64,000 nt of DNA. Source: an uncultured Clostridiaceae bacterium. Lineage in GTDB: Bacteria > Bacillota > Clostridia > TANB77 > CAG-508. Every line of letters starts with the position of its first letter. Within the stretch, counting starts at the first letter, position 1. Shown piece after piece: positions 3,759 to 24,118 of this stretch. The translations under genes and the position numbers were made by a program. A model generated the notes under the pieces. That model did not search any database, had not been told where the DNA came from, and saw only the letters and a program-made list of their open reading frames with translations. The stretch lies in contig CANRSN010000008.1 in NCBI GenBank assembly GCA_947642455.1, forward strand, positions 15,389 to 79,388. The letters run 5' to 3'.

Positions 3759-5049
3759 ATGGCAGTAACAAAAATATGGAAAGTAAAAGACAGATTAGAC
3801 ATAACAATAAACTATGCAGTAAATCGGAGAAAAAACAGAAGAAAAATTATATGTATCAGGTATAAATTGTATGCCTGATACATCATACCAAGAAATGATA
3901 AATGTAAAAAAGCAATTTTTCAAAACAGATGGAATACAATGCTTTCACGCAGTACAATCTTTTGTAAAAGGAGAAATAACACCAGAGCAAGCACACGAAA
4001 TTGGTATGAAACTTGCTGAAGAATTGTGGGGAGATAAATTTCAAGTAGTAGTTACAACGCACTTGAACACAGATAATTTGCATAACCATTTTGTGCTAAA
4101 TTCTGTTTCCTTTTTGGATGGCAAGAAATTCTGTAACACTAAAAAAGATTATGCAATAATGAGAAAAACATCAGATAGACTTTGTGAAGAATATGGATTA
4201 AATGTATTATCACAAGAAGAAAAATATAATAAATATGCTACAAGCAGATTATATAAGGAACTAATGAAAGATTCTATTGACTATGCAATAGAAAATGCAA
4301 AAGATTATAATGAATTTATAAAAGTACTTCAAGATTTAGATTATATAGTTACAGACAAAAATAATATTCTATCTATAAGGCGTGATCCATACAAAAGAAA
4401 CACGAGAATTAAAAGGCAATTTGGTAACAAATATTCAAAAGAAAATATATACAAGAGAATATTAGAAACACAACCATTATACCCTTATTCTTCTAATCCT
4501 ATGGTACTAATTACTAGAACTCTTGAAAATTATAATAAACAAAAAGAAAAACATTATCAAAACAAAGGCTCTATTGGCTATCTTATATATCAATATGAGA
4601 AACTATTTGACATCAGTACAGAAAGTACTTTAAAATCGAATATAACGAAAATAACACCAGAACTAATAGCAGAGATTAAGAAAATGGACGAGTATTCTAA
4701 TCAAGCAAGATTTCTGGCAAAAAACAATATAAATACAGAGCAAGAATTATTAGATTTTGAAAAAGCTGCGTATGAAAGAGTAAATCCTTTAAAAAGTAAA
4801 ATGGAGAATCTTTGGAAAAAACATAAAAGAGCAAAAACAAATGAAGAAAAACAAGCAATAGAAAACGAGATTATAGAAATTTCTAAACAAATTACACCTA
4901 TTGCAGAAGAAATAAGACATTGTAATAATATACTTCAAAGAGTAGAAAAAATTAAGCGACATCAGTTACACGAGCAAATAGAACGAGAAAAAGCACAATT
5001 TGAAAAAGATCAGGAAAAGAATAAAAAAGACAATAACAAAGCAAGGTAG
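3759..5049 (+). pseudogene. MobA/VirD2-family relaxase with a frame break near 3822-3830
   Basis: 'MAVTKIWKVKDRLDITINYAVN' (frame of 3759) continues as 'GEKTEEKLYVSGINCMPDTSYQ..' in the frame of ORF 3871-5049. The HxH-type motif 'NLHNHFV' is present and the C-terminus is coiled-coil. Confidence 0.7.
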
Positions 5050-5171
5050 ATTATTCTATCTTGTTTTGTAAATTTGTTGAAAAAAGTATAAATTTGTGAT
5101 AGTATATGGAAAGAAAAGTAAATATAAAAAAGAACTTTTCATAAAAAACTATTTATTACATAAGGAGGAAC

Positions 5172-8786: not shown

Positions 8787-9068
8787 CGAAAAGGAAGAAC
8801 ATATGAAGAATTTAAAGAGTACATAAGTAAGCATCAAGAATGTGCAATTGTAGAGATGGATACAGTTGAAGGAGTCAAAGGTGGTAAAGTATTTTTAACA
8901 TTAATCTTTAGACAAAGTAGATTTATGCTATATATCTAATGGAAAAGAAGACGATGGAATGTGTAGAGAAAGCATTTCAAAATATAAAAGAAATATTAGG
9001 TATAAAAATATTTAAAAAAGTGTTTGAAGTGATATTAACAGATAATGGCTCAGAGTTCTTCAATCCTC
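8787..9068 (+). pseudogene. DDE (rve/IS30-like) transposase internal fragment, frameshifted
   Basis: 'IVEMDTVEGVKGGKVFLTLIFRQSRFML', then in another frame 'LMEKKTMECV..FEVILTDNGSEFFNP'. There is no N-terminal HTH and no C-terminal end. Confidence 0.5.
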
Positions 9069-9985
9069 TATATTTTAGACTTGGTAAGATTGTGAGTGAG
9101 AATGCAAAATATGGGAATAATTTTATTAAAGATTTTTCTATTGCTTTAAAATTAGAATTTCCAGATAGTACAGGTTTTTCTACTAGAAATCTATCAAGAA
9201 TGAAAAAATTTTATGAAGAATATAAAGATTTATCAAATTTGCCAATGGCGTTGGCAAAATTGCCATGGTCACACAATAATCTTCTTTTAGAAAAAATAAA
9301 GGATTTGAATGTTAGAGAGTGGTATGCAGAAAAATGTTTTGAAAATGGTTGGGCTCATTCTGTTTTAGATCATCAAATAGACTTACAATTATATGAAAGA
9401 CAGGCAATTACCGAAAAACTTACAAATTTCAAAGAGAAATTACCTATTTCACAAAGCGAACTTGCAAGAGATGTAATTAAAGACCCATATATTTTTGAAC
9501 TTGAAGGAATTAAAGAAGAAGCTATCGAAAAAGACATTGAAAATGCGATGATGGAAAGAATAAAAAATGTATTACTAGAATTAGGAAAAGGATTTAGCTT
9601 TGTCGGAAATCAATATAAAATTTCTACTGAAAATCAAGATTATTATATTGATATGTTATTTTACCATTTAGACTTAAGATGTTATATTGTTGTTGAGTTA
9701 AAAAATAATGAATTTAAGCCAGAATATACTGGACAATTAAGTTTTTATGTAACAGCTGTTGATGAAACGTTGAGAAAAGAACAAGACAATCAAACTATTG
9801 GGCTATTACTTTGTAAAGGAAAAGATAAATTATCAGTGGAATGGGCTTTAAAAGGAACAAATGCCCCTATCGGTGTTACTTCTTATGAAGTTAGAAACGA
9901 ATTACCAAAAGAAATATTAGACAAGTTACCTACTGAAGAAGATATAAATAAACATATTGATATAAATGAAGAAAATAAGGAGTAA
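9069..9985 (+). pseudogene. YhcG/DUF1016-type PDDEXK nuclease, N-terminally truncated and fused in frame to the transposase fragment
   Basis: 'FPDSTGFSTRNLSRMKKFYEEY', 'LPWSHNNLLLEK' and 'DMLFYHLDLRCYIVVELK' (D..E-L-K core). Confidence 0.55.
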
Positions 9986-9992
9986 TATAAAT

Positions 9993-10496
9993 ATGGAAGA
10001 TGAAATTTTAGAAATATTGAATATTATAATAAATAATATAAGCAATGAGATTATACCTCAAAATGAAAGAGAAAAGATTGTATATAATATTAATAAAAAT
10101 AGTTCAATTTCTTTTATGGTATTTAAAAATATACTATTAAAGATTACATTTCAAAAAACAAGGATGTTTATTGAAATTAGGAAATTAGAGAATATTAACT
10201 TGGATGAGTTGTCAAAGAAATTTGAAGAAATTAAATACAAAGAAGATAAGTTATACATAAAAATATACATAAACGAAATTAAAGATATAAATAAAATAAA
10301 CAATGAAGTAAAAGAAATATATAAATACTTATATTCAAATGAACCTGTTGAAAATTATGGATGTTGTTCTAGATTTACAGAATGTTCAGATGCATTAAAA
10401 TGTATCAATCCAGATAAGAAATTAGCAAAAGGTTGTCAATATAGAGAAAATCTTGAATCAGGCAAAATATTTTATGGAATAAATAAAAATATATAA
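9993..10496 (+). CDS. hypothetical protein with a Cys-rich C-terminal module
   Basis: C-terminus 'YGCCSRFTECSDALKCINPDKKLAKGCQYRENLESGKIFYG'. The start was chosen at 'MEDEIL'. Confidence 0.45.
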   Translation: MEDEILEILNIIINNISNEIIPQNEREKIVYNINKNSSISFMVFKNILLKITFQKTRMFIEIRKLENINLDELSKKFEEIKYKEDKLYIKIYINEIKDINKINNEVKEIYKYLYSNEPVENYGCCSRFTECSDALKCINPDKKLAKGCQYRENLESGKIFYGINKNI

Positions 10497-10508
10497 AAGG
10501 AGAATCTT

Positions 10509-11591
10509 ATGTTTGGTATTGAAATAAAAACAAGAATTACTGAAGACGGAAAAATTGAAACGATAATAGATGATGGAACAGATTCAAAAAGACATAAAAG
10601 AAATAAAAAAGGTATTAGTATTATAGATAGCATTAAAGATTATTGTGTTATTGATATAGAAACAACGGGACTTGATTCTAAATATGATGAAATTATTGAA
10701 ATTAGTGCATTAAAAGTAAGAGATAATAAAATCATTGATACATATACAAATTTAGTAAAACCTAAGCAAAGAATTTTTGTTAATAATAATGATGATGAAA
10801 CTGATTTTTGCATAGAAGGTGGAGAGAAAGTAAAGTATATAGATAACTTTATAACGGAGTTAACAGGTATAACTAATAAAATGCTTGAAAATGCTCTAGA
10901 TATTAGTGAAGTTTTATCATCATTTAATGAGTTTATAAATAATGATATATTGATAGGTCATAATGTTAATTTTGATATAAATTTTTTATATGATAATAAT
11001 ATGGAATATTTGCAAAAGCCTCTAACAAATAATTTTATAGATACATTAAGAATAGCAAGAAGAATTTTACCAGAATTAAAACACTATAGATTAGATGATT
11101 TGATAGAATATTTTAATAAACAAAAAAGAAATGAACATAGAGCTTTAAATGATTGTATTTTAACTAATGAAGTCTATACTGAATTGATATCTTTAGCAGT
11201 AGATAAGTTTGAAACTGTTGAAAATTTTAAAAATCAATTAAAAAAACATCATTCATCATCTTCAATAAAAGCAAAAGAAATAGTAGCAGAAACTACTGAA
11301 TTTGATGAAGAAAACCCTTTATATGATAAAGTATGTGTTTTTACAGGTACATTAGAAAAAATGTTACGAAAAGATGCGATGCAAAGTGTAGTTAATTTAG
11401 GTGGAATCTGTGGAGATTCTGTTACTTCTAAAACAAATTATTTAATATTGGGAAATAATGAGTATTGCCAAAATATAAAAGGTGGAAAAAGTAATAAACA
11501 GAAGAAAGCAGAGAAACTAAAAGTTAAAGGACAAGATATAGAAATTATATCTGAGAATGTCTTTTATGATATGGTAGAAGGTCGAGAATAA
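10509..11591 (+). CDS. DnaQ-like 3'-5' exonuclease fused to a C-terminal BRCT domain
   Basis: ExoI 'VIDIETTGLD', ExoII 'GHNVNFDINFL', ExoIII 'HRALNDC'. BRCT-like 'VCVFTGTLEKM..KTNYLILGN'. Confidence 0.7.
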   Translation: MFGIEIKTRITEDGKIETIIDDGTDSKRHKRNKKGISIIDSIKDYCVIDIETTGLDSKYDEIIEISALKVRDNKIIDTYTNLVKPKQRIFVNNNDDETDFCIEGGEKVKYIDNFITELTGITNKMLENALDISEVLSSFNEFINNDILIGHNVNFDINFLYDNNMEYLQKPLTNNFIDTLRIARRILPELKHYRLDDLIEYFNKQKRNEHRALNDCILTNEVYTELISLAVDKFETVENFKNQLKKHHSSSSIKAKEIVAETTEFDEENPLYDKVCVFTGTLEKMLRKDAMQSVVNLGGICGDSVTSKTNYLILGNNEYCQNIKGGKSNKQKKAEKLKVKGQDIEIISENVFYDMVEGRE

Positions 11592-11611
11592 TAATAAATA
11601 ATTCAATAAAA

Positions 11612-11914
11612 ATGAAAGAAAATAAACTTACTATATTTATTAATAAGCCAGTTGAAAAGGTATTTGAATATTCACTTGAATCAAACAATGTTCCTAAATG
11701 GATTACTTCGATTAAGGAAGAAATACCAGAAGAAAGACCAGTAAAATTGGGGACAAAATTAAGAAATGTTGGTGTTAATAGTACAGAATGGAATAAATAT
11801 GAGATGATTGAATTTGAATATTTTGAATGGGCAGAAAAGGGGGATTTAGATGGGTTAATGGAGATTTCTGCACTAGAAATATTAAAAGAATTAATTGAGA
11901 AGGAAGTATGGTAA
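11612..11914 (+). CDS. short SRPBCC-like protein
   Basis: The N-terminal pattern 'IFINKPVEKVFEY' is typical of SRPBCC/AHSA1-type proteins. Only 100 aa, so possibly truncated. Confidence 0.35.
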   Translation: MKENKLTIFINKPVEKVFEYSLESNNVPKWITSIKEEIPEERPVKLGTKLRNVGVNSTEWNKYEMIEFEYFEWAEKGDLDGLMEISALEILKELIEKEVW

Positions 11915-11919
11915 TTATT

Positions 11920-12324
11920 ATGGAATTTACTGAGTATGATAATAATAAACTAATCGATTTTTATATAAAAAATGGACTAGAATTTGATGAAAATAAAGGC
12001 TATTTTGGAGATAATATAAGATCATTTGTAATATTAGAAAATGAGCAAATAGTAGGAGCAGTTTCTATTTCTATATATAAAAATAAAAATTTTATCGAGG
12101 CTTTAGCAGTAGCTAAAGAGTATAGAAATAATGGATATGGAAAATTGCTACTAAAAAAAGCTATACAAGAACTAGCAAAACCAGTTTACACCATTTCAAA
12201 AGCAGATGAATTTTATAAAGAAAATGGCTTTGTATATAATAATGTTGATTTAATAGGTGAAGAATGTAAAACCTGTGAAAACTATAATATAACTTGTTTT
12301 CCAAAAGTAATGATATATGAATAA
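11920..12324 (+). CDS. GNAT family N-acetyltransferase
   Basis: 'IEALAVAKEYRNNGYGKLLLKKAI' is the acetyl-CoA-binding motif A. Confidence 0.7.
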   Translation: MEFTEYDNNKLIDFYIKNGLEFDENKGYFGDNIRSFVILENEQIVGAVSISIYKNKNFIEALAVAKEYRNNGYGKLLLKKAIQELAKPVYTISKADEFYKENGFVYNNVDLIGEECKTCENYNITCFPKVMIYE

Positions 12325-12331
12325 TATTTTG

Positions 12332-12361
12332 CGACTAAAAAATGTTTTAATTTTTTAGTCG
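12332..12361. terminator. bidirectional hairpin terminator
   Basis: cgactaaaaaa / ttttttagtcg arms, lying between convergent genes. Confidence 0.6.
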
Positions 12362-12396
12362 TAGCTTTAGCTTTAGTTTTAATATAATAAAGTTGC

Positions 12397-12846
12397 TTAT
12401 AATTCTAACTCAAAACTTTTTTCTCTTTCTTCTTTTTTGACTTGTTTTTCAGCATCTAATGAAGTGCTAGTTTCTTTTTCAAAATCTCTAATAATCTCAT
12501 CTTCAGAAGGTAAGTCAAATTTTTTACATATCCATTTTATGAATTTTTTAGTAGTTTCCTTAAATTTGTCAATTACTTTTTTTAAATGGCTATTTTCTTT
12601 TTCTAACCTATGAATTTTATTTTTATATTGCCATTCTAAATTAAATGATTTATGTTCAAATTCGTGTTCAAGTGTTTTTTTCTTTTCTGTGTATTCATAT
12701 TCTAAATTCTTAACAGTATTATGAAGTTCTTGATTATTAGCAATTATTGAGATTCTTTCTTTTTGGTATTTTTGAGCTTCATCAATAACTTTAGATTGTT
12801 TTGATAATTCGTTATGCAATTTTAGATTTGTTTGATATAATTCCAT
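12397..12846 (-). CDS. coiled-coil protein, possibly a remnant of a Mob/Pre-type C-terminus
   Basis: K/E-rich heptad-like sequence starting at 'MELYQTNLK'. The longer ORF extension to 13119 runs through a structured non-coding region. Confidence 0.35.
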   Translation of the reverse strand: MELYQTNLKLHNELSKQSKVIDEAQKYQKERISIIANNQELHNTVKNLEYEYTEKKKTLEHEFEHKSFNLEWQYKNKIHRLEKENSHLKKVIDKFKETTKKFIKWICKKFDLPSEDEIIRDFEKETSTSLDAEKQVKKEEREKSFELEL

Positions 12847-13096
12847 AATTTTATCATCTTTTGGCTTAATAATTTCATTTTCTACTTTTTCTCTATTAAG
12901 TTTTATGAGTTTAATATCATTTATTAGTATGGCGTTTGGTGGAATTACTACTATAAAAAGATTTAAATCAAGTAGCTCTTGACCAAGCCAAACAAGACAA
13001 CAAACCAAATGACCACAGACAAAATGAGGTTTAGCTAACCGAAAAGGGATGATGTAGCACTGTCGCTTCGATGCATTATCCTTTTTTATGAAAATG

Positions 13097-13174
13097 AAAA
13101 AAACTAAATGCTGTCGCACATTTAGTTTTTCTCGAACATCTATGAATAATGCTTTTTTGTATTTAACTTAAGTT
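13097..13174 (-). ncRNA. candidate ~78-nt sRNA (module A)
   Basis: Bounded by a consensus promoter (13181-13209) and a hairpin aaactaaatg/catttagttt with a U-run on the minus strand (13096-13128). A paralogous module lies at 16159-16232. Confidence 0.3.
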
Positions 13175-13180
13175 AAATAT

Positions 13181-13209
13181 AGTATACTACAATATTTAGT
13201 ATATGTCAA
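13181..13209 (-). promoter_or_regulatory. sigma-A-type promoter TTGACA-N17-TATACT overlapping the palindrome tagtatacta
   Basis: The minus strand reads ttgaca-tatactaaatattgtag-tatact. The palindromes aacttaagtt and tagtatacta lie adjacent to it. Confidence 0.5.
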
Positions 13210-13251
13210 ACGATTTTTTAAAATTCATTTTTGAGCAAAATTTATAAAATT

Positions 13252-13481
13252 TTAATCTTCTTCTACATCTTTAAATAATTTATCTGTAAAAAATTCATTT
13301 AATTCAATGCCAAATCCTTCGCATATATGTAATAAAGTAAAAAGTTTTGGACTAATCTATTGTCATTTTCTATTTTTGAAATTTCCTTTGATGTTAGTTC
13401 AATACCAAGTAATTGTAATTTTTCTGCTAAATCTTGTTGAGATAAATTAGCTTTTAATCTTAATTCTTTTACGTTTTTCAT
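13252..13481 (-). pseudogene. XRE-family HTH regulator with a frame break near 13349-13360
   Basis: 'LRLKANLSQQDLAEKLQLLGIELTSKEISKIENDNR', then in another frame 'SPKLFTLLHICEGFGIELNEFF..'. Confidence 0.65.
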
Positions 13482-13581
13482 TTTTTAAATAAATATTTGC
13501 TCCTTTCAGCAAGTATATAAGAGAAGAAATCTAAACTTCTCTAACACACTAGAGGACTTTTTTACAAAAAGTGCATATTAG

Positions 13582-13610
13582 TTGAAAATATGCAGAATAC
13601 ATACTATAAT
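13582..13610 (+). promoter_or_regulatory. promoter TTGAAA-N17-TATAAT for 13655 gene
   Basis: ttgaaa-atatgcagaatacatac-tataat. Confidence 0.5.
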
Positions 13611-13654
13611 CATATTATGTAACTATAAAATTATTACAGAAAGGTTGGTAAAAA

Positions 13655-14434
13655 ATGATTAAGTATTTTATGCGGAGGACTATTTATAAGGAGTTTGACA
13701 AAGAATCACAGGACATGCTTTTGCAACTGACTTCAAAGCAACACATAATCGTGATACTTTGTTTTATGTTTTGGGCAGTTGCCTTTATTTTCCCATACAT
13801 TCCAGTATTTATAATTGATGTATGTGAAGATATTGAGTTTTCTATGACTACTAAAATAGCAATTATAGCTTTTATGCTAATATGCATGGCTGGATTGCTA
13901 GTATCTATGAAAGTATTTAAAAGAGCTATGATTGTATTCTCACGGTTGTTGGCAGAAAGAATTTATTTTTTAGTATGCACAACCAAAGGCAAAGCTATTT
14001 GTAAAAATGAGTTTAAGATTATCAATAATGTAAACGAAGTGTTATATGAATTTATTGCAACTCAAATGTGTCAGGGATATTGCTACTCAATCTGTTTTGA
14101 CATATGTAAAACATTAAAAAAGGGGTGCATAGAATTTCTTGCAATAAAGAAATTTTCTCCACATGATGATGAAGAAAATGACGGAAAAGATTTTACAATG
14201 CATGTTCTCTATGTAAACAACGGCTGGGCTTTTGATACATATAGTTCTCGTCAATATCCGATTGAGAAATTGCACGAAATCTACAAAGCTAAAATTTATA
14301 AGTCTTTTAGTTTTGATGAAATTAGTAGCAAATCTTATGAAGAATTTAGAGAAGAACAATATCCTGAACTCGCAAAGTGGTCTATTGATAATAACTGTTC
14401 CATGCTTTCAAAAGGTGACAAGGAGGAAACTTAA
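13655..14434 (+). CDS. membrane-anchored protein with a possible papain-like Cys/His domain
   Basis: Two N-terminal hydrophobic helices. 'QGYCYSICF' and 'MHVLYVNNGWAFD' resemble the papain Q..C and H..N..W motifs. Confidence 0.5.
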   Translation: MIKYFMRRTIYKEFDKESQDMLLQLTSKQHIIVILCFMFWAVAFIFPYIPVFIIDVCEDIEFSMTTKIAIIAFMLICMAGLLVSMKVFKRAMIVFSRLLAERIYFLVCTTKGKAICKNEFKIINNVNEVLYEFIATQMCQGYCYSICFDICKTLKKGCIEFLAIKKFSPHDDEENDGKDFTMHVLYVNNGWAFDTYSSRQYPIEKLHEIYKAKIYKSFSFDEISSKSYEEFREEQYPELAKWSIDNNCSMLSKGDKEET

Positions 14435-14441
14435 ACATTTC

Positions 14442-14478
14442 ACGACTGGTTATACAACTTATAACCAGCCGTGTTTTT
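14442..14478 (+). terminator. intrinsic terminator
   Basis: acgactggttata / ataaccagccgt stem followed by a T-run. Confidence 0.6.
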
Positions 14479-14528
14479 ATGTGTAAAGATATGATTTTTT
14501 ATAAATTTGTTATATTATTTTTTACTAT

Positions 14529-14557
14529 TTGACTTTTTTTAAATATCTGTATATAAT
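14529..14557 (+). promoter_or_regulatory. promoter TTGACT-N17-TATAAT
   Basis: ttgact-ttttttaaatatctgta-tataat. Confidence 0.5.
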
Positions 14558-14563
14558 AAATAT

Positions 14564-14662
14564 GGAAAATGAATAACCGTAGTGAATGCGGTTACCACTA
14601 CATATAGTTATAACAACAAATTCGCGATTTGGTAGAGAGCAGAATGTGTTGTTATTTTTATT
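14564..14662 (+). ncRNA. candidate ~100-nt sRNA or leader
   Basis: Lies downstream of the consensus promoter. Hairpin taaccg/cggtta (14574-14594), then stem ataacaaca/tgttgttat (14610-14655) followed by tttttatt. No ORF. Confidence 0.3.
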
Positions 14663-14998
14663 CCTTATCTATTATTGAATTTACATATTTTATGTATAAA
14701 ATCGCCAATAAGGTTACGTTTATAGTTGTAGAAGCCATTAAGGATTTTTTATTTTCTAACATTTCTAACAATTTTTATTTATAACTCCATTTGTAATAGT
14801 AACTGAAATTATATTGTGTATATTACAAAGAATGATAAGAATAATATATTCATTGGAACAGACGATTTAAATAAAACTATTATGAATGATGTTGAAGGTG
14901 AAGTAGAACAATATATAAAAGAAAATAAAGATAAGTATATAAGAATCTAAGAAAAGTTTAAAGAAAAAGTAAAATAAATAAAAGAAAGAGGTAGTAAG

Positions 14999-15613
14999 AT
15001 GAGTGCAAATGATTATTTCAAAAATGATGAATATTGGGCTAATCATATAAATAAAGATTTGGAAGAAGATTTATGGATAGATGAGTATAAGACATACCTG
15101 AATTTAAAAGGTAAATGCTTGGATTTAGGTTGTGGAATTGGGCAATATTCAAAACAACTTATTAAGTATGGATATGATGTAATATCAGCAGATATATCAG
15201 ATATAGCTTTAAATAAAGTTAAAAGTTTTAATGAAAATATAGTGAAATTAGATATGAGAGATAAGTTTCCTTTTCCAGATAATGAATTTGACTTAGTGTT
15301 TGCAAATTTATCTATTCATTATTTTTCTGATGAAGATACTAGAAAGTTAATGCTAGAAATAAAAAGAATTATAAAAGAAGATGGATTATTCATTGGAAGT
15401 GTTAATGGAATTGAAGGATTAAAAGTAATAAGAAGTGAAGCCAAAGAAATTGAATATCATTTTTACGAGTATAAAGATAAACTAATAAGATTATTTGATA
15501 TCAATGATATAGAAAAATATTTAGCTGACTTTAATATTATAAAAATAGATGAGAGAGAAACTATAAGATTCAAAAATAAAAAGAATTATATAGTGTTTAT
15601 TGCAAAAAAATAA
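14999..15613 (+). CDS. class I SAM-dependent methyltransferase
   Basis: Motif I 'CLDLGCGIGQYS', with an acidic residue at 'ISADIS'. Confidence 0.7.
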   Translation: MSANDYFKNDEYWANHINKDLEEDLWIDEYKTYLNLKGKCLDLGCGIGQYSKQLIKYGYDVISADISDIALNKVKSFNENIVKLDMRDKFPFPDNEFDLVFANLSIHYFSDEDTRKLMLEIKRIIKEDGLFIGSVNGIEGLKVIRSEAKEIEYHFYEYKDKLIRLFDINDIEKYLADFNIIKIDERETIRFKNKKNYIVFIAKK

Positions 15614-15638
15614 ACTAAAGGTATTCTTGAATATAAGC

Positions 15639-15667
15639 TTGCAGTTTTATGTGAAATGTTATATAAT
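15639..15667 (+). promoter_or_regulatory. promoter TTGCAG-N17-TATAAT
   Basis: ttgcag-ttttatgtgaaatgtta-tataat. Confidence 0.45.
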
Positions 15668-15711
15668 ATTACTTAAAAAGGACTTTTTTATAACTTAATT
15701 CCTGTATTCAC

Positions 15712-15790
15712 TAATTAGTGGAGGAAGTATCCTCATACTTTTTGGTTTAACATATATAACAAGAAAACAACAATAAAAGGAAATGGAGGA
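15712..15790 (+). repeat. structured leader, copy L (inverted partner at 19321-19398)
   Basis: About 80% identity to the reverse complement of 19321-19398. Includes hairpin gagga-agta-tcctc and the RBS ggagg. Confidence 0.6.
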
Positions 15791-15797
15791 TCTTATT

Positions 15798-16049
15798 ATG
15801 AACGATGAAAAAAAGATGAACAGTTTAAGGACAGTAGTTCGGAATAGCAAATTTATACCTATGCTTGTCCTGATATTCATTGAAATGCTTGCAGTAGGGC
15901 GTGTGCTTTTGTGTATTCTTATTTTGCTTTTTATTACCATTGAATTGGTTTTAAGTGGAATTTTAAAAGACAGTAAAGGAATTGTAGCAGGTAGTGCGTG
16001 GTATGTATTATGGTTAATTGCTTTAATTGTAAACTTGTTCAGAATTTAA
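15798..16049 (+). CDS. small hydrophobic membrane protein (83 aa)
   Basis: RBS 'aatggagg' upstream of the ATG at 15798. Contains 2-3 predicted TM helices. Confidence 0.5.
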   Translation: MNDEKKMNSLRTVVRNSKFIPMLVLIFIEMLAVGRVLLCILILLFITIELVLSGILKDSKGIVAGSAWYVLWLIALIVNLFRI

Positions 16050-16119
16050 TCATCCCAAAAAGAAAATTATTTCTTTTTCCTTGTAAAAGCCAGAAGACAA
16101 GCAAGACTAGAAATAGTTG

Positions 16120-16153
16120 ATAGAAGTGTATTGCTACTGCACTTCTATTTTTT
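16120..16153 (+). terminator. intrinsic terminator of the small membrane gene
   Basis: atagaagtg / cacttctat followed by tttttt. Confidence 0.55.
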
Positions 16154-16158
16154 AGGCA

Positions 16159-16232
16159 AAAAAATAGAACTAAATGTTGCTACCCATTTAGTTCGTGTTA
16201 TTTAAATGACCTCACATTGAATAACTTAAGTT
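16159..16232 (-). ncRNA. candidate ~74-nt sRNA (module B)
   Basis: Promoter at 16239-16266 (minus strand). Hairpin gaactaaatg/catttagttc with a U-run on the minus strand (16158-16194). The 5' end 'atttaacttaagtta' is shared with module A. Confidence 0.3.
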
Positions 16233-16238
16233 AAATAT

Positions 16239-16266
16239 AGTATACTACTTTTTGATTATATGTCAA
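16239..16266 (-). promoter_or_regulatory. promoter TTGACA-N16-TATACT overlapping the palindrome tagtatacta
   Basis: The minus strand reads ttgaca-tataatcaaaaagtag-tatact. Confidence 0.45.
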
Positions 16267-16284
16267 ATGAAATTTATGTTATCA

Positions 16285-16347
16285 GTTTTTTGAAAAAGGT
16301 GTCAATAGTTTTTTGAAAAAGGTGTCAATAGTTTTTTGAAAAAGGTC
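16285..16347. repeat. 23-bp tandem direct repeat, 2.7 copies
   Basis: gttttttgaaaaaggtgtcaata occurs twice, followed by the partial copy gttttttgaaaaaggtc. Confidence 0.9.
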
Positions 16348-16457
16348 GAAAAAATCAATAAAAAATGATATACTAATTATGTTAATTTTTTAATCCTGTT
16401 TTACAGGTTGATATATAGACTGCAAATGTAAAATAATTATTTTAAGGAGGGTTTTAT

Positions 16458-16946
16458 ATGTTGATTCTGATTTTAGGGATAACAATAATTATGTTTATTA
16501 CATTTCTTGTGTTACGTAGAAGATACGCTGATAGGTACTCTGAAAGTTATCTTACTGTGTATGATTTCTTTTCAACAATGTGTTGGATATCTGGTATCAT
16601 ATGTGTAGGCTTAATTATTATAATTTGTTACTTAGTAACAAATGTAGCGACCGAAAGTGTTATTGATAGCAAAATTGCAATGTACCAAGAAGAAAATGCA
16701 TATATTGAACAAGACATTGACAAAATTATCAAACAATATTTGGAACATGAACATGACACATTTTCTGACCTAAAAATGGAAGAAAGCTCAATTACTTTGG
16801 TTACATTTTTTCCAGAACTCAAGTCTGATACTCTTGTACAGCAACAATTAGAAATTTATGTTGCTAACAATGCCAAGATAAAAAGCTTGAAGGAGAAGAA
16901 AATTAATCTTATCAAGATTAGATGGATACTTTATTTTGGTAAATAA
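16458..16946 (+). CDS. membrane protein (two N-terminal TM helices plus a coiled-coil tail)
   Basis: RBS 'aaggagg'. Hydrophobic N-terminus. Confidence 0.5.
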   Translation: MLILILGITIIMFITFLVLRRRYADRYSESYLTVYDFFSTMCWISGIICVGLIIIICYLVTNVATESVIDSKIAMYQEENAYIEQDIDKIIKQYLEHEHDTFSDLKMEESSITLVTFFPELKSDTLVQQQLEIYVANNAKIKSLKEKKINLIKIRWILYFGK

Positions 16947-16993
16947 TTGAAACACAAAGACTGTTTGTTGCTGAAAAGATATCAAACATTTTT

Positions 16994-17157
16994 TATACAA
17001 TAAGAAAGTCATACTGACTTTTCTTATTGTATAAAAAGCTTCGCAAACATTGTGCACAAATTTAAAAAAAATTTGGCACAGAACAAATTTACGGAAAGCC
17101 AAAGAGAAGAGTTAAAGTTGTGCTAAATTAAAGGCTTTCCGATTTGTTCTATTTTTT
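16994..17157 (+). repeat. three-hairpin intergenic element H1
   Basis: Hairpin A tatacaataagaaagtca/tgacttttcttattgtata, linker aaaagcttcgc, hairpin B, and hairpin C gaacaaatttacggaaagcc/ggctttccgatttgttc followed by a T-run. Homologous to 18971-19131. Confidence 0.7.
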
Positions 17158-17168
17158 AGTCATTTCTA

Positions 17169-17196
17169 TTGCGATTTATTAAAATTATGATATACT
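17169..17196 (+). promoter_or_regulatory. promoter TTGCGA-N16-(TG)TATACT
   Basis: ttgcga-tttattaaaattatga-tatact. Confidence 0.4.
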
Positions 17197-17231
17197 TTAA
17201 TACATCATAAAAATGCAAGGAGGAAACGAAA

Positions 17232-18203
17232 ATGACAAATGGCATTATTTCAAAAGCAAATTCAAAAGAGAAGGAAATGTTAGAACGGTTAAAACTATTA
17301 GAGCAAAGCTTAGTAAGCAAATCAGAAATTAGTATTATTGGTCATGATAACATTGACGTTGATGCTGTTTTATCTGGAGTGTTACTTTCAAGGTTGCTCA
17401 AGTTCTTGAACATCAATGCTAACTTCATAATTTTACAACCTATTAGAAAACATAATACCTACGAAATTGTAAGTGAGTTAACGGGTGTTAATATGTATTC
17501 TTATGAAGAAAAAAACGAAAAAGAGTTACGGAATCTCTTTTTAGTTGACCACTATGAGACAACACACAAAGGGAAGGTGGTTGGATGCATTGATCATCAT
17601 CCAACAGAAAAAGAAAATACGTATGAATTTTCATATGTAAGAAACAGTTCAGCTACAGCCTATTTGGTTTATGAATTGATGAAAATAGCAAATTATCCTT
17701 TAACAGCCGAAGAAGCTAAAATGATTATTGTTTCAATGATGATAGATACAACAGCATTTAAAAGTAGTAAAACAGTATCAGAGGAAGTTGAAGTTGCAAA
17801 AATTCTTGCAAAAAAATTTAATCTTGACTATGAGTATTTAGAAAGGTATTGTCTTTGCTTAACTCCTATTGAAAAAATGAACATTGATGAAATAACGTCA
17901 AATGGACAAAAGGAGTATAATTATAATGCACATAAGGTAAAGTCTGCTTATTTGCAACTTTATGGTATGCCAGATGAAGCAACAATAAACAAATGGCTTA
18001 CTTATTTAAAAAGTAAAGTTTCAGGTAAAACATCAAGTATCGAAATGATGGTATTTATTATTTTTGATACAAAATCAAATATTACTTATGAATATCAAGT
18101 AATGCAGTATTATGCAAAAAAGATTATTCATAATGGAATATTATCAAGAGGAAAAGATATTATGCCTGAAATTGAAAAAAGATATTGCAATGTAAAAAGC
18201 TAA
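17232..18203 (+). CDS. DHH-family phosphoesterase
   Basis: 'IIGHDNIDVDAV' (motif I/II), 'CIDHHPT' (DHH), and a DHHA-like C-terminal half. Confidence 0.7.
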   Translation: MTNGIISKANSKEKEMLERLKLLEQSLVSKSEISIIGHDNIDVDAVLSGVLLSRLLKFLNINANFIILQPIRKHNTYEIVSELTGVNMYSYEEKNEKELRNLFLVDHYETTHKGKVVGCIDHHPTEKENTYEFSYVRNSSATAYLVYELMKIANYPLTAEEAKMIIVSMMIDTTAFKSSKTVSEEVEVAKILAKKFNLDYEYLERYCLCLTPIEKMNIDEITSNGQKEYNYNAHKVKSAYLQLYGMPDEATINKWLTYLKSKVSGKTSSIEMMVFIIFDTKSNITYEYQVMQYYAKKIIHNGILSRGKDIMPEIEKRYCNVKS

Positions 18204-22951: not shown

Positions 22952-24118
22952 ATGGAAGAAAATATTGAATTAAAAGTAGTATCTGATATAGATACAAAAG
23001 AAGTTGAAACAGCATTATTACAAACTAAAAAAGTAACAGAGGAGGTAGTAGAAAAATCATTAAATTATGATGCATTATTACCAGAAGAGAAGAAAGCAAT
23101 AGACGAATTCTTGGAAAAAGTAGATGTAAGTAATACTGCACAAGTTTTACAATATGGAGCAAGTGCACAAAATAATATATCTAAGTTTTCAGATAGTGTA
23201 CTTCAAGATGTGAAAACAAAAAGTACAGGAGAAGTTGGAAATTTATTATCAGATTTAGTTGTTCAAATAAAAGATTTTGACACAGATATAGAAGAAGGAG
23301 GAAAAACAGGATTATTTGCAATATTTAACTCTGCTAAAAAACAAGTAGAAAAGATAGTAGCAAAATATAATAAGGTAGAAAATAATATAGCTAAAATAGA
23401 AAAAGAGTTAGAAAGTCATAAAATTCAAATGATGAAGGATATAGCTATATTTGATACAATGTATGAAAAAAATTTACAATATTTTAAAGAATTGTCTTTA
23501 TACATAATTGCTGGAGAGAAAAAGCTAGAAGAATTAAGAAATGTTGTATTGCCAGAAATGCAGAAAAAAGCTACAGAAAGTAAAGATCAGATAGATGCAC
23601 AAGCAGTAAATGATATGGTAAATACAATAAATCGTTTTGAAAAGAAAATATATGATTTAAAAACTACAAGAATAATATCAATTCAAATGGCACCACAAAT
23701 TAGATTAATACAAAATAATGATAGTGAATTGGTTGAAAAAATACAAAGTTCTTTAATAAATACAATTCCACTTTGGAAAAATCAAATAGTAATAGCACTA
23801 GGTTTAACTAATGCAAAAAGTGCTTTGGGAGCTCAAAAACAAGTAACTGATATGACAAATGAAATGTTAAAGAAAAATAGTGAATTGTTAAAACAAGGAA
23901 CAATAGAAATTGCAGCAGAATCAGAAAAGGCTATCGTCGATGTTGCAACACTTCAAAAAACAAATCAAGATATTATAGAAACTTTAGATAAGGTAATCGA
24001 AATCCATGAAGAAGGTAGAACTCAAAGAAAAATAGCAGAGGCAGAATTAGAAAATATAGAAGGTCAATTAAAAGATAAACTTTTAGAAATAAAAATTGCT
24101 AGTGGAAAAGAGGAATAA
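22952..24118 (+). CDS. telA: TelA/YaaN-family toxic anion resistance protein
   Basis: The length, all-helical character and conserved N-terminal region 'VLQYGASAQNNISKFSD' fit the TelA family (from memory). Confidence 0.65.
   Translation: MEENIELKVVSDIDTKEVETALLQTKKVTEEVVEKSLNYDALLPEEKKAIDEFLEKVDVSNTAQVLQYGASAQNNISKFSDSVLQDVKTKSTGEVGNLLSDLVVQIKDFDTDIEEGGKTGLFAIFNSAKKQVEKIVAKYNKVENNIAKIEKELESHKIQMMKDIAIFDTMYEKNLQYFKELSLYIIAGEKKLEELRNVVLPEMQKKATESKDQIDAQAVNDMVNTINRFEKKIYDLKTTRIISIQMAPQIRLIQNNDSELVEKIQSSLINTIPLWKNQIVIALGLTNAKSALGAQKQVTDMTNEMLKKNSELLKQGTIEIAAESEKAIVDVATLQKTNQDIIETLDKVIEIHEEGRTQRKIAEAELENIEGQLKDKLLEIKIASGKEE

Follow-up and report, generated by a model that had tools for sequence, protein, structure and literature searches.

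The window, the whole 64,000-nucleotide stretch of DNA analysed here, comes from an uncultured Clostridiaceae bacterium and carries on its minus strand two related modules, A and B, each with a promoter, a palindrome and a hairpin followed by a U-run. We argue below that these modules are probably orphan antitoxin small RNA genes of a new type I toxin-antitoxin family. A repeat search of the window finds an identical 27-nt stretch common to both (13164-13190 and 16222-16248), the 26-nt version of which has 2 matches in the window against 0 expected from 100 shuffles. The modules are 72% alike across 378 aligned columns, the best conserved parts being the hairpin and the span from -35 box to palindrome. 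A consensus scan places a minus-strand promoter in each, with 11 of 12 box positions matched (TTGACA-17-TATACT, 13209 to 13181, and TTGACA-16-TATACT, 16266 to 16239), and a terminator scan finds minus-strand terminator-like hairpins with a U-run at 13133 to 13096 and 16194 to 16167. Promoter-like sites are not rare in this AT-rich region (35, versus 27.7 +/- 4.2 in shuffles); terminator-like sites are enriched (5, versus 0.6 +/- 0.7 expected). Both modules carry the palindrome tagtatacta (13180-13189 and 16238-16247), and aacttaagtt is the core of further perfect palindromes of 20 nt at 13160-13179 and 12 nt at 16222-16233.

These scans bear out the twin modules that a first-pass annotation had proposed from the letters of the sequence. 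That annotation also stated that no open reading frame (ORF) fits between promoter and terminator, and indeed no minus-strand ORF of at least 30 amino acids lies in that interval; a 240-aa minus-strand ORF (12397..13119) has its GTG start inside the copy A hairpin itself. The predicted RNAs, 83 nt for A and 77 nt for B, each fold into an open 5' part and a strong terminal hairpin (z -4.5 and -3.3, respectively). No Rfam family matches at gathering score in the window, and the best sub-threshold overlaps are SpF36 (25.5 bits, gathering score 48) and RsaA (21.1 bits, gathering score 50).

Alignment with intact relatives, in which the small RNA gene faces a convergent gene for a short peptide, assigns the remaining parts of the modules. 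For simplicity, we refer to this peptide as the toxin, a predicted activity, to the hairpin of the small RNA as T2 and to that of the toxin mRNA as T1. Copy A, read against the intact locus L023, has the following parts:

13204..13209, minus strand: -35 box TTGACA (11/12 match, spacer 17), part of the pattern used to collect the family
13181..13186, minus strand: -10 box TATACT, within tagtatacta (13180-13189), from the consensus scan
13160..13179, unstranded: 20-nt perfect palindrome TATTTAACTTAAGTTAAATA, read from the sequence, spanning the likely start (about 13174)
13092..13174, minus strand: predicted antitoxin small RNA of about 80 nt, with an open 5' part, terminator hairpin and U-run (fold -20.3 kcal/mol, z -4.5; ends inferred)
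13134..13153, minus strand: core antisense to the toxin Shine-Dalgarno sequence, start codon and first codons, matching the initiation region of L023
13096..13133, unstranded: hairpin T2, the predicted small RNA terminator, from scan and fold (core 13102-13127, loop 13111-13118)
13047..13081, plus strand: hairpin T1, terminator of the former toxin mRNA (fold -18.4 kcal/mol, z -4.6)
12924..13034, plus strand: toxin pseudogene, homologous from codon 6 of the intact 43-aa gene, by alignment with L023 and reading of frames

Homology of copy A to L023 begins at 12924, in codon 6, and runs to past 13250, with 100% identity from 13095 through the small RNA gene and its promoter. The toxin gene itself lacks a promoter, 5' untranslated region (UTR), Shine-Dalgarno sequence and start codon; it also carries a 6-nt deletion and an in-frame TAA at 12954-12956, ahead of the original stop TAG at 13032-13034. 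On the plus strand, the segment 13134..13153 is a direct repeat of the toxin initiation region. A-run and T-run flanks make T2 bidirectional, and its loop motif GCGACAG is common to T1, which gives the T1 loop region (CUGUCGC) complementarity to the T2 loop on the small RNA side.

Copy B, read against the intact locus L071, has the corresponding parts:

16261..16266, minus strand: -35 box TTGACA (11/12 match, spacer 16)
16239..16244, minus strand: -10 box TATACT, within tagtatacta (16238-16247), from the consensus scan
16222..16233, unstranded: 12-nt palindrome TAACTTAAGTTA, read from the sequence, at the likely start (about 16232)
16156..16232, minus strand: predicted antitoxin small RNA of about 75 nt (fold -16.8 kcal/mol, z -3.3), near-identical to the small RNA gene of L071
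16195..16225, minus strand: antisense segment, directed at the initiation region of an MTSFELIW-type toxin of 28 aa, by alignment with L071
16167..16194, unstranded: hairpin T2, called as a terminator on both strands, from scan and fold
16120..16148, plus strand: hairpin T1 of the former toxin mRNA (fold -13.3 kcal/mol, z -3.7)
16086..16110, plus strand: remnant of the lost 28-aa toxin gene, its final 8 codons and stop TAG (16108-16110), by alignment with L071

Here homology to the intact locus starts only at about 16086 and continues through both hairpins, the small RNA gene and the promoter. Loop complementarity is again present, between UUGCUAC in T1 and GUAGCAA in T2 of small RNA B. The first-pass annotation had described the modules as paralogous segments of 190-230 bp holding small RNA genes, which is right as far as it goes; the segments also include the 3' remnant of a toxin gene and its terminator. 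It had further set module B against a small hydrophobic-protein gene (15798-16049), here an 88-aa ORF at 15783-16049, a pairing we do not retain: the partner is instead a toxin gene since lost, whose terminator and final 8 codons survive. The 88-aa ORF has two hydrophobic stretches and no Pfam match, and it occupies the place where toxin B would be expected to have its 5' part. Three tandem 23-nt units (TGAAAAAGGTGTCAATAGTTTTT) at 16268-16346 stand immediately upstream of the small RNA B -35 box, and each of them carries TTGACAcc on the minus strand, a repeated -35-like box.

The genome to which the window belongs (2.22 Mb, 85 contigs, 27.4% G+C) holds four module copies. In addition to A and B, the modules on contigs C33 and C28, named here after their contigs, face convergent ORFs of 42 and 28 aa, each behind a GGAGG Shine-Dalgarno sequence. 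On the toxin strand of such loci, the stretch from palindrome to hairpin is a direct repeat of the Shine-Dalgarno sequence, start codon and first codons, and an RNA from the opposite strand would therefore be antisense to that region. A third, divergent intact locus, on contig C67 (minus strand, about 4590-5070 of the reverse complement), encodes a 29-aa peptide from a GTG start; it has the 8-nt loop motif GCGGGAAC in both hairpins, a -10 box TATAAT and a start palindrome of the GCTAGC/TAGCTA type. Since the C67 locus was missed by the exact promoter pattern used for the census described below, that census is an undercount. Finally, a remnant on contig C22 (about 23700-23950) joins a toxin promoter and the start of its 5' UTR to the 3' third of the ORF and the terminator; it has suffered an internal deletion, and the small RNA gene is absent after the terminator. 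The family tally in this genome is thus 3 intact and 3 decayed copies.

To delimit the family, we collected loci from species-representative genomes by an exact 25-base pattern of the small RNA promoter, which yielded at least 122 stretches. Among the matches listed were 128 promoter matches, 10 of them too close to a contig end, leaving 118 usable copies. The titles of pattern-bearing records name uncultured Clostridia, "Clostridium sp.," Eubacteriales, Bacillota or Bacilli metagenome-assembled genomes, some from animal or human gut. In a sample of 401 genomes of the order, the pattern occurs in 58, all of one taxonomic family (57 of 275 genomes there, 0 of 125 in four other families), and a reversed-pattern control gave 0 matches in the same sample. 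DNA of the intact C33 locus matches 31 of 42 genomes of the genus, with both promoter ends conserved and the middle variable.

An intact convergent peptide ORF of 22-46 aa with a strong Shine-Dalgarno sequence is present in 95 of the 118 usable copies, which divide as follows:

84 of 118 loci: intact ORF starting M-x3-[DE]L[IVM][WF], the main class
11 of 118 loci: intact hydrophobic ORF of 22-24 aa with an acidic end
23 of 118 loci: no intact ORF (2 of these have less than 190 nt downstream and are not judgeable)

The N-terminus of the main class reads M-x3-(D/E)-L-(I/V)-W-(R/H)-L-(I/V)-x-L-L-L and precedes a polar, charged tail in which D, E, K, N and Q abound. Tryptophan stands at position 8 in 59 of 60 distinct main-class peptides, a position that was itself in the ORF-calling motif. 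Variable sites number 77, 54 and 103 at the three codon positions, a coding signature. The 43-aa form recovers 151 database clusters at E <=0.01, none of which has a Pfam domain or a name. The peptides have no match in PHROGs, PADLOC or the ESM Atlas; the family has none in phage and plasmid collections searched by blastn in distant mode; and the PXXXG motif is absent from all peptides of the family that were examined. A literature search found the peptide-motif strings in no paper, and a keyword search for an equivalent already described turned up general reviews and the Helicobacter aapA1 system only.

The small RNA and the toxin mRNA are complementary at two sites, and both covary. The first predicted contact lies between the 5' segment of the small RNA and the initiation region of its own peptide gene, to which it is antisense across the Shine-Dalgarno sequence, start codon and first ~8 codons. 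We evaluated 79 unique pairs of small RNA and initiation region with RNAduplex, with the following energies:

cognate pairs: -27.8 +/- 4.5 kcal/mol
non-cognate pairs: -14.7 +/- 5.5 kcal/mol
shuffled small RNA: -12.3 +/- 3.5 kcal/mol

The best duplex site on the whole mRNA covers the start codon in all 79 pairs. The cognate site takes first rank in 38 of the 79 and is among the eight best in 77. With one representative per cluster, the cognate partner is best in 19 of 24 cases at 80% identity and in 6 of 6 at 70%, for clusters made on the -9..+14 segment, a longer segment of the initiation region having merged nearly everything.

The second predicted contact involves the terminators. At least two hairpins lie between nucleotide 29 of the small RNA and the toxin stop codon in 64 of 79 loci, and in 62 of these 64 the T1 and T2 loops share a run of at least 5 nt on one DNA strand, compared with 19% of non-cognate pairs. 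Loops that are alike on one DNA strand are complementary as RNAs of opposite strands. About 20 distinct shared loop motifs occur, including TGACCA, GTGGTAG, CGGTAG, TGCGACAG, TAGGG, ATTGCGA, AGCGA, TGATCA and GTAGCAA, and the complementarity is kept in both window copies (GCGACAG/CUGUCGC in A and GUAGCAA/UUGCUAC in B). Of 14 one-hairpin loci, 11 belong to the main class and have a second hairpin below the threshold of the caller; the other 3 belong to the 22-24-aa class, where the single hairpin looks like one shared terminator. A U-run follows the first hairpin in 77 of 78 loci, and the median predicted length of the small RNA is 70 nt past the promoter pattern. The initiation region and the terminator loops thus covary with their counterparts, locus by locus.

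It is this convergent, covarying peptide gene of the intact relatives that upholds the earlier suggestion of control RNAs on the minus strand, akin to those of type I toxin-antitoxin systems or to counter-transcripts. The accompanying remark that the RNA 3' ends adjoin the convergent mRNA and do not overlap it is also correct; pairing by way of a repeated initiation-region copy, as in the par system discussed below, would explain it. The suggestion that the small RNAs act on the leader of the downstream ORF fared less well, as pairing with 15712-15830 is no better than with shuffles, 17 and 20 of 200 of which did as well. A search of the organism's own genome for other targets of the small RNAs found no extended complementarity, the best non-family matches spanning 16-20 nt at E >=0.015.

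Decay of the toxin gene recurs across the family. Among 116 evaluable copies, 21 have lost the ORF and kept the small RNA gene. The modes of loss are varied: conversion of the tryptophan codon to TAG (L084 and L104), frameshifts (L109 and L160), internal deletions (L152 and C22 in the organism's own genome) and many 5' truncations. Recurrent loss of an ORF with retention of its small RNA gene is what would be expected of a harmful gene. At L159, the small RNA promoter and palindrome are fused straight to the Shine-Dalgarno and start region of the toxin, apparently through a deletion in which the initiation region recombined with the repeat of it that the small RNA gene contains. Tandem arrays occur at L036 and L051, with three toxin genes of the 22-24-aa class and at least two small RNA genes within about 1 kb.

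Since both toxin genes in the window are dead, A being 5'-truncated with an internal stop and B reduced to 8 codons, the two modules would be orphan antitoxin genes. Our preferred reading, to which we assign a probability of about 80%, is that both encode orphan antitoxin small RNAs belonging to a new par-like type I toxin-antitoxin family in gut Clostridia, with transcription and toxicity predicted from sequence. At an intact locus, a weak promoter (TTGTTT-17-TATAAT) would drive a short mRNA for the 22-46-aa peptide, and a consensus promoter on the opposite strand would drive the small RNA toward the toxin gene. We infer that the two RNAs first touch through the complementary loops of their terminator hairpins. 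The open 5' part of the small RNA, an antisense copy of the initiation region that comes from a direct repeat some 250 nt distant, would then pair with the Shine-Dalgarno sequence, start codon and first ~8 codons and block translation. The toxin 5' UTR may itself fold so that a 5' CCUUU masks the Shine-Dalgarno AAAGG. Overall, 97.9% of the cells in this masking fold are paired, and two pairs of the inner helix show compensatory changes in 3 sequences each; the CCUUU-AAAGG helix pairs in 99.6% of cells, its columns are nearly invariant, and it encloses a small hairpin. The orphan RNAs may still damp related intact toxins elsewhere in the genome: A would pair with the C33 initiation region at -17.7 kcal/mol (cognate -21.8) and B with that of C28 at -21.6 kcal/mol (cognate -35.0).

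Several observations weigh against this reading. The main-class peptides lack a canonical transmembrane stretch, their uncharged run being about 9-11 residues; in the 28-aa form, only 9 uncharged residues lie between R9 and E19. No toxin family was found by Pfam and NCBIfam searches at E values up to 10, in which no hit was significant and only DUF4576 (E 0.06) and DfrA36 (E 0.1) appeared. The proportion of 95 intact ORFs in 118 copies is conditional, the loci having been gathered by the small RNA promoter and the ORFs called by a motif derived from the earliest cases. Relatedness inflates the counts, and near-identical relatives keep the cognate site from first rank in all but 38 of 79 pairs. 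Gene conversion, and not selection on pairing, could account in part for the likeness of the repeats within a locus, and L159 indicates that recombination between such repeats does occur. A competing 5' UTR hairpin, without covariation, fits 96.6% of cells, nearly as well as the masking fold, so that masking of the Shine-Dalgarno sequence is a moderately supported proposal. Lastly, the only RNA data, assembled contigs from mouse-gut RNA libraries (shares 0.05-0.10), cover, within 11500-17500, 12923-13283, 13092-13239, 16085-16275 and 16123-16229; as these contigs carry neither strand nor ends and may derive from DNA, they are uninformative on transcription.

The alternative that survives best accepts the small RNA and its target but not the toxin: the peptide would be a regulatory or membrane-associated microprotein, and the small RNA an ordinary translational repressor, with no addiction or killing. 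The amphipathic, acidic character of the main-class peptides, which are not clearly membrane spanning, speaks for this view, as does the failure to match any toxin family. It would leave unexplained why the ORF has been repeatedly inactivated with the small RNA gene kept, as in the 21 evaluable copies, and why the loci are multicopy and patchy (58 of 401 genomes, with 3 intact and 3 decayed copies in one genome). The sister class, set in the same locus frame, consists of classic hydrophobic peptides of 22-24 aa with an acidic end. The present loci combine a consensus antitoxin promoter with a weak toxin promoter, as type I systems usually do. We therefore regard a harmless microprotein as improbable and keep the toxin-antitoxin interpretation.

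A second alternative turns on the palindrome at the start site. A perfect palindrome of at least 8 nt is present in 66 of 80 distinct start regions; the corresponding figures are 21% for shuffles and 8% for the neighbouring segment. Core sequences vary (among them CTTAAG, CTTAATTAAG, CTTATAAG, CTCGAG and GACGTC), so that palindromy is conserved at this position despite turnover of the sequence, and the symmetry runs through the centre. In copy A the palindrome extends upstream of the likely start, and the 5' end is unpaired in folds. Central symmetry, upstream reach and an unpaired 5' end together tend to point to a role at the level of the duplex or the DNA rather than to a plain RNA hairpin. 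Some family members also show pairing, G-U pairs included, between the 3' half of the palindrome and the codons for the conserved (D/E)-L-(I/V)-W.

The first-pass annotation had linked these palindromes to the XRE gene beside module A, and on that view an XRE repressor would switch the small RNAs through the palindromes, with other mRNAs of the island, such as the 15712-15797 leader, as targets. The conserved palindromy fits this idea, and a Cro/C1-type helix-turn-helix (HTH) gene does end a short way upstream of copy A, as it does at C33 and in 15 of 111 relatives. Nevertheless, in the other 96 of 111 loci no HTH-type gene ends within 60 nt upstream of the promoter. Representatives of two of the three HTH types match HTH_26/HTH_3, and one type accompanies two different palindromes. 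The XRE gene of the window (13254-13481, minus strand) is moreover a frame-shifted chimera with a junction near 13345: its N-terminal HTH part corresponds to a 60-aa ORF (HTH_3, 26 bits), its C-terminal ~26 codons lie in a different frame, and only those ~26 codons are shared with the XRE gene beside C33. The rarity of the neighbour and the chimeric state of the gene leave the XRE-operator link with little support. Pairing with 15712-15830 stays at the level of shuffles, and the 5' part of each small RNA matches instead the toxin initiation region of its own family. Taken together, these points make an XRE-controlled switch very unlikely as an explanation of the modules.

Least credible of all is the idea that the modules are terminal direct repeats, att sites or an oriT of a mobile insert of about 3 kb (13215-16091) and not RNA genes, for although the direct repeats lie about 3.06 kb apart and flank accessory genes (a methyltransferase and unknown ORFs), and RNA and DNA contigs of relatives join across parts of the region, copies A and B come from different subfamilies sharing only 27 identical bases and the hairpin, almost every relative is a lone copy with a peptide gene beside it and not one of a pair around cargo, and the phage and plasmid collections gave no match.

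The surroundings of the antitoxin genes may form a variable island, as parts of 13.2-17.1 kb are bridged by contigs from relatives. The stretch 8939-12324 encodes accessory-type functions: a YhcG PDDEXK nuclease, a DEDDh exonuclease-BRCT fusion, a GNAT acetyltransferase and a methyltransferase. Just past an ORF that ends at 16946, a perfect 18-nt inverted repeat at 16990-17037 (TTTTTATACAATAAGAAA / TTTCTTATTGTATAAAAA, 12-nt spacer) is probably a terminator.

A broader proposal would treat these loci as a new par-like superfamily whose specificity resides in two RNA addresses, the loop-loop contact and the repeated initiation region, both fast diversifying. Orphan antitoxin genes would be kept for anti-addiction immunity against related toxins, mobile or resident, and the palindrome would be a DNA-level switch, read by a dimeric protein or by site-specific methylation, that shuts off the antitoxin and releases the toxin on a defined signal. 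As a whole this picture is speculative, and we think it rather unlikely to hold in full.

The kind of system described here, type I and par-like, is already known; the family itself is previously undescribed and known at present from its sequences. It would fill part of a gap for abundant uncultured gut Clostridia, as in silico homologue searches for known type I toxins found none in most clostridial species, according to a review of Clostridia (PMC6563280). The natural covariation at two RNA-RNA sites offers ready-made compensatory mutants for the par-type model of two-step binding. For annotation, the gain is a peptide family of 22-46 aa that includes the 151 unnamed database clusters. Orphan antitoxin genes are also shown to be common, at 21 of 116 evaluable copies, a point of relevance to the decay of such modules and to cross-protection.

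Known systems of a similar kind include those of Clostridioides difficile. The relevant sections of PMC6563280 describe CD2517.1-RCd8, CD2907.1-RCd9 and CD0956.2-RCd10, together with prophage copies, as convergent and linked to mobile DNA. The toxins in that account were unannotated and without homology to other type I toxins, 50-53 aa long (homologs 30-56) and lysine rich at the C-terminus, and a long overlapping complementary region of the antitoxins suggested mRNA degradation (PMC6563280). The present family resembles these systems, as far as those sections portray them, in its host class Clostridia, its convergent genes, its unannotated small proteins without known homology and its link to mobile DNA; it differs in that the genes do not overlap and pairing would proceed through a repeated copy of the initiation region.

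The txpA/RatA and bsrG/SR4 pairs of Bacillus subtilis likewise combine a convergent small RNA with a small toxin in a Gram-positive host, and our family matches neither. In both, the RNAs pair by a true 3' overlap. SR4 affects translation as well as decay, as stated in the part of PMC3834814 that concerns it. Another pair, SprA1/SprA1AS of Staphylococcus aureus, which encodes PepA1, is mentioned in PMC7472228. It shares with the predicted scheme of our family a convergent antitoxin whose 5' domain is directed against the ribosome-binding region of the toxin mRNA; no sequence or family match links the two. Its antitoxin converges on the 3' end of the toxin gene, where the two RNAs overlap, and a non-overlapping 5' domain acts on the ribosome-binding region.

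The nearest counterpart is par of the Enterococcus faecalis plasmid pAD1, which pairs the Fst mRNA, RNA I, with RNA II. In the account given in the sections of PMC7472228 devoted to it, par has convergent promoters and complementary terminator stem-loops that start the interaction. Direct repeats in its DNA give a second complementarity over the toxin initiation site, and a 5' structure masks the Shine-Dalgarno sequence (PMC7472228). Unlike par, the subfamilies of the window have two hairpins with complementary loops, a single shared terminator being confined to the 22-24-aa class; one long repeat of about 30-45 nt takes the place of DRa plus DRb; and a conserved palindrome sits at the start site of the small RNA. 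The peptides lack PXXXG and any Pfam or NCBIfam model, and the RNA belongs to no Rfam family. Membership in the Fst/Ldr superfamily is therefore not indicated, given the absence of a profile match and of PXXXG, a short hydrophobic stretch in place of a helix of about 20 residues, and two terminators; the charged C-terminal tail and conserved tryptophan of that superfamily are nonetheless present. In its predicted regulatory logic the family matches par itself. Intact relatives have convergent promoters, of which the window keeps only that of the small RNA, and a short antitoxin RNA with complementary terminator stem-loops as the predicted contact. Direct-repeat complementarity again covers the toxin initiation site, and a 5' mask over the Shine-Dalgarno sequence may be a further likeness. 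As in par, the product is a short peptide with a hydrophobic N-terminal part, a conserved tryptophan and a charged tail, and specificity would be set by poorly conserved pairing sites.

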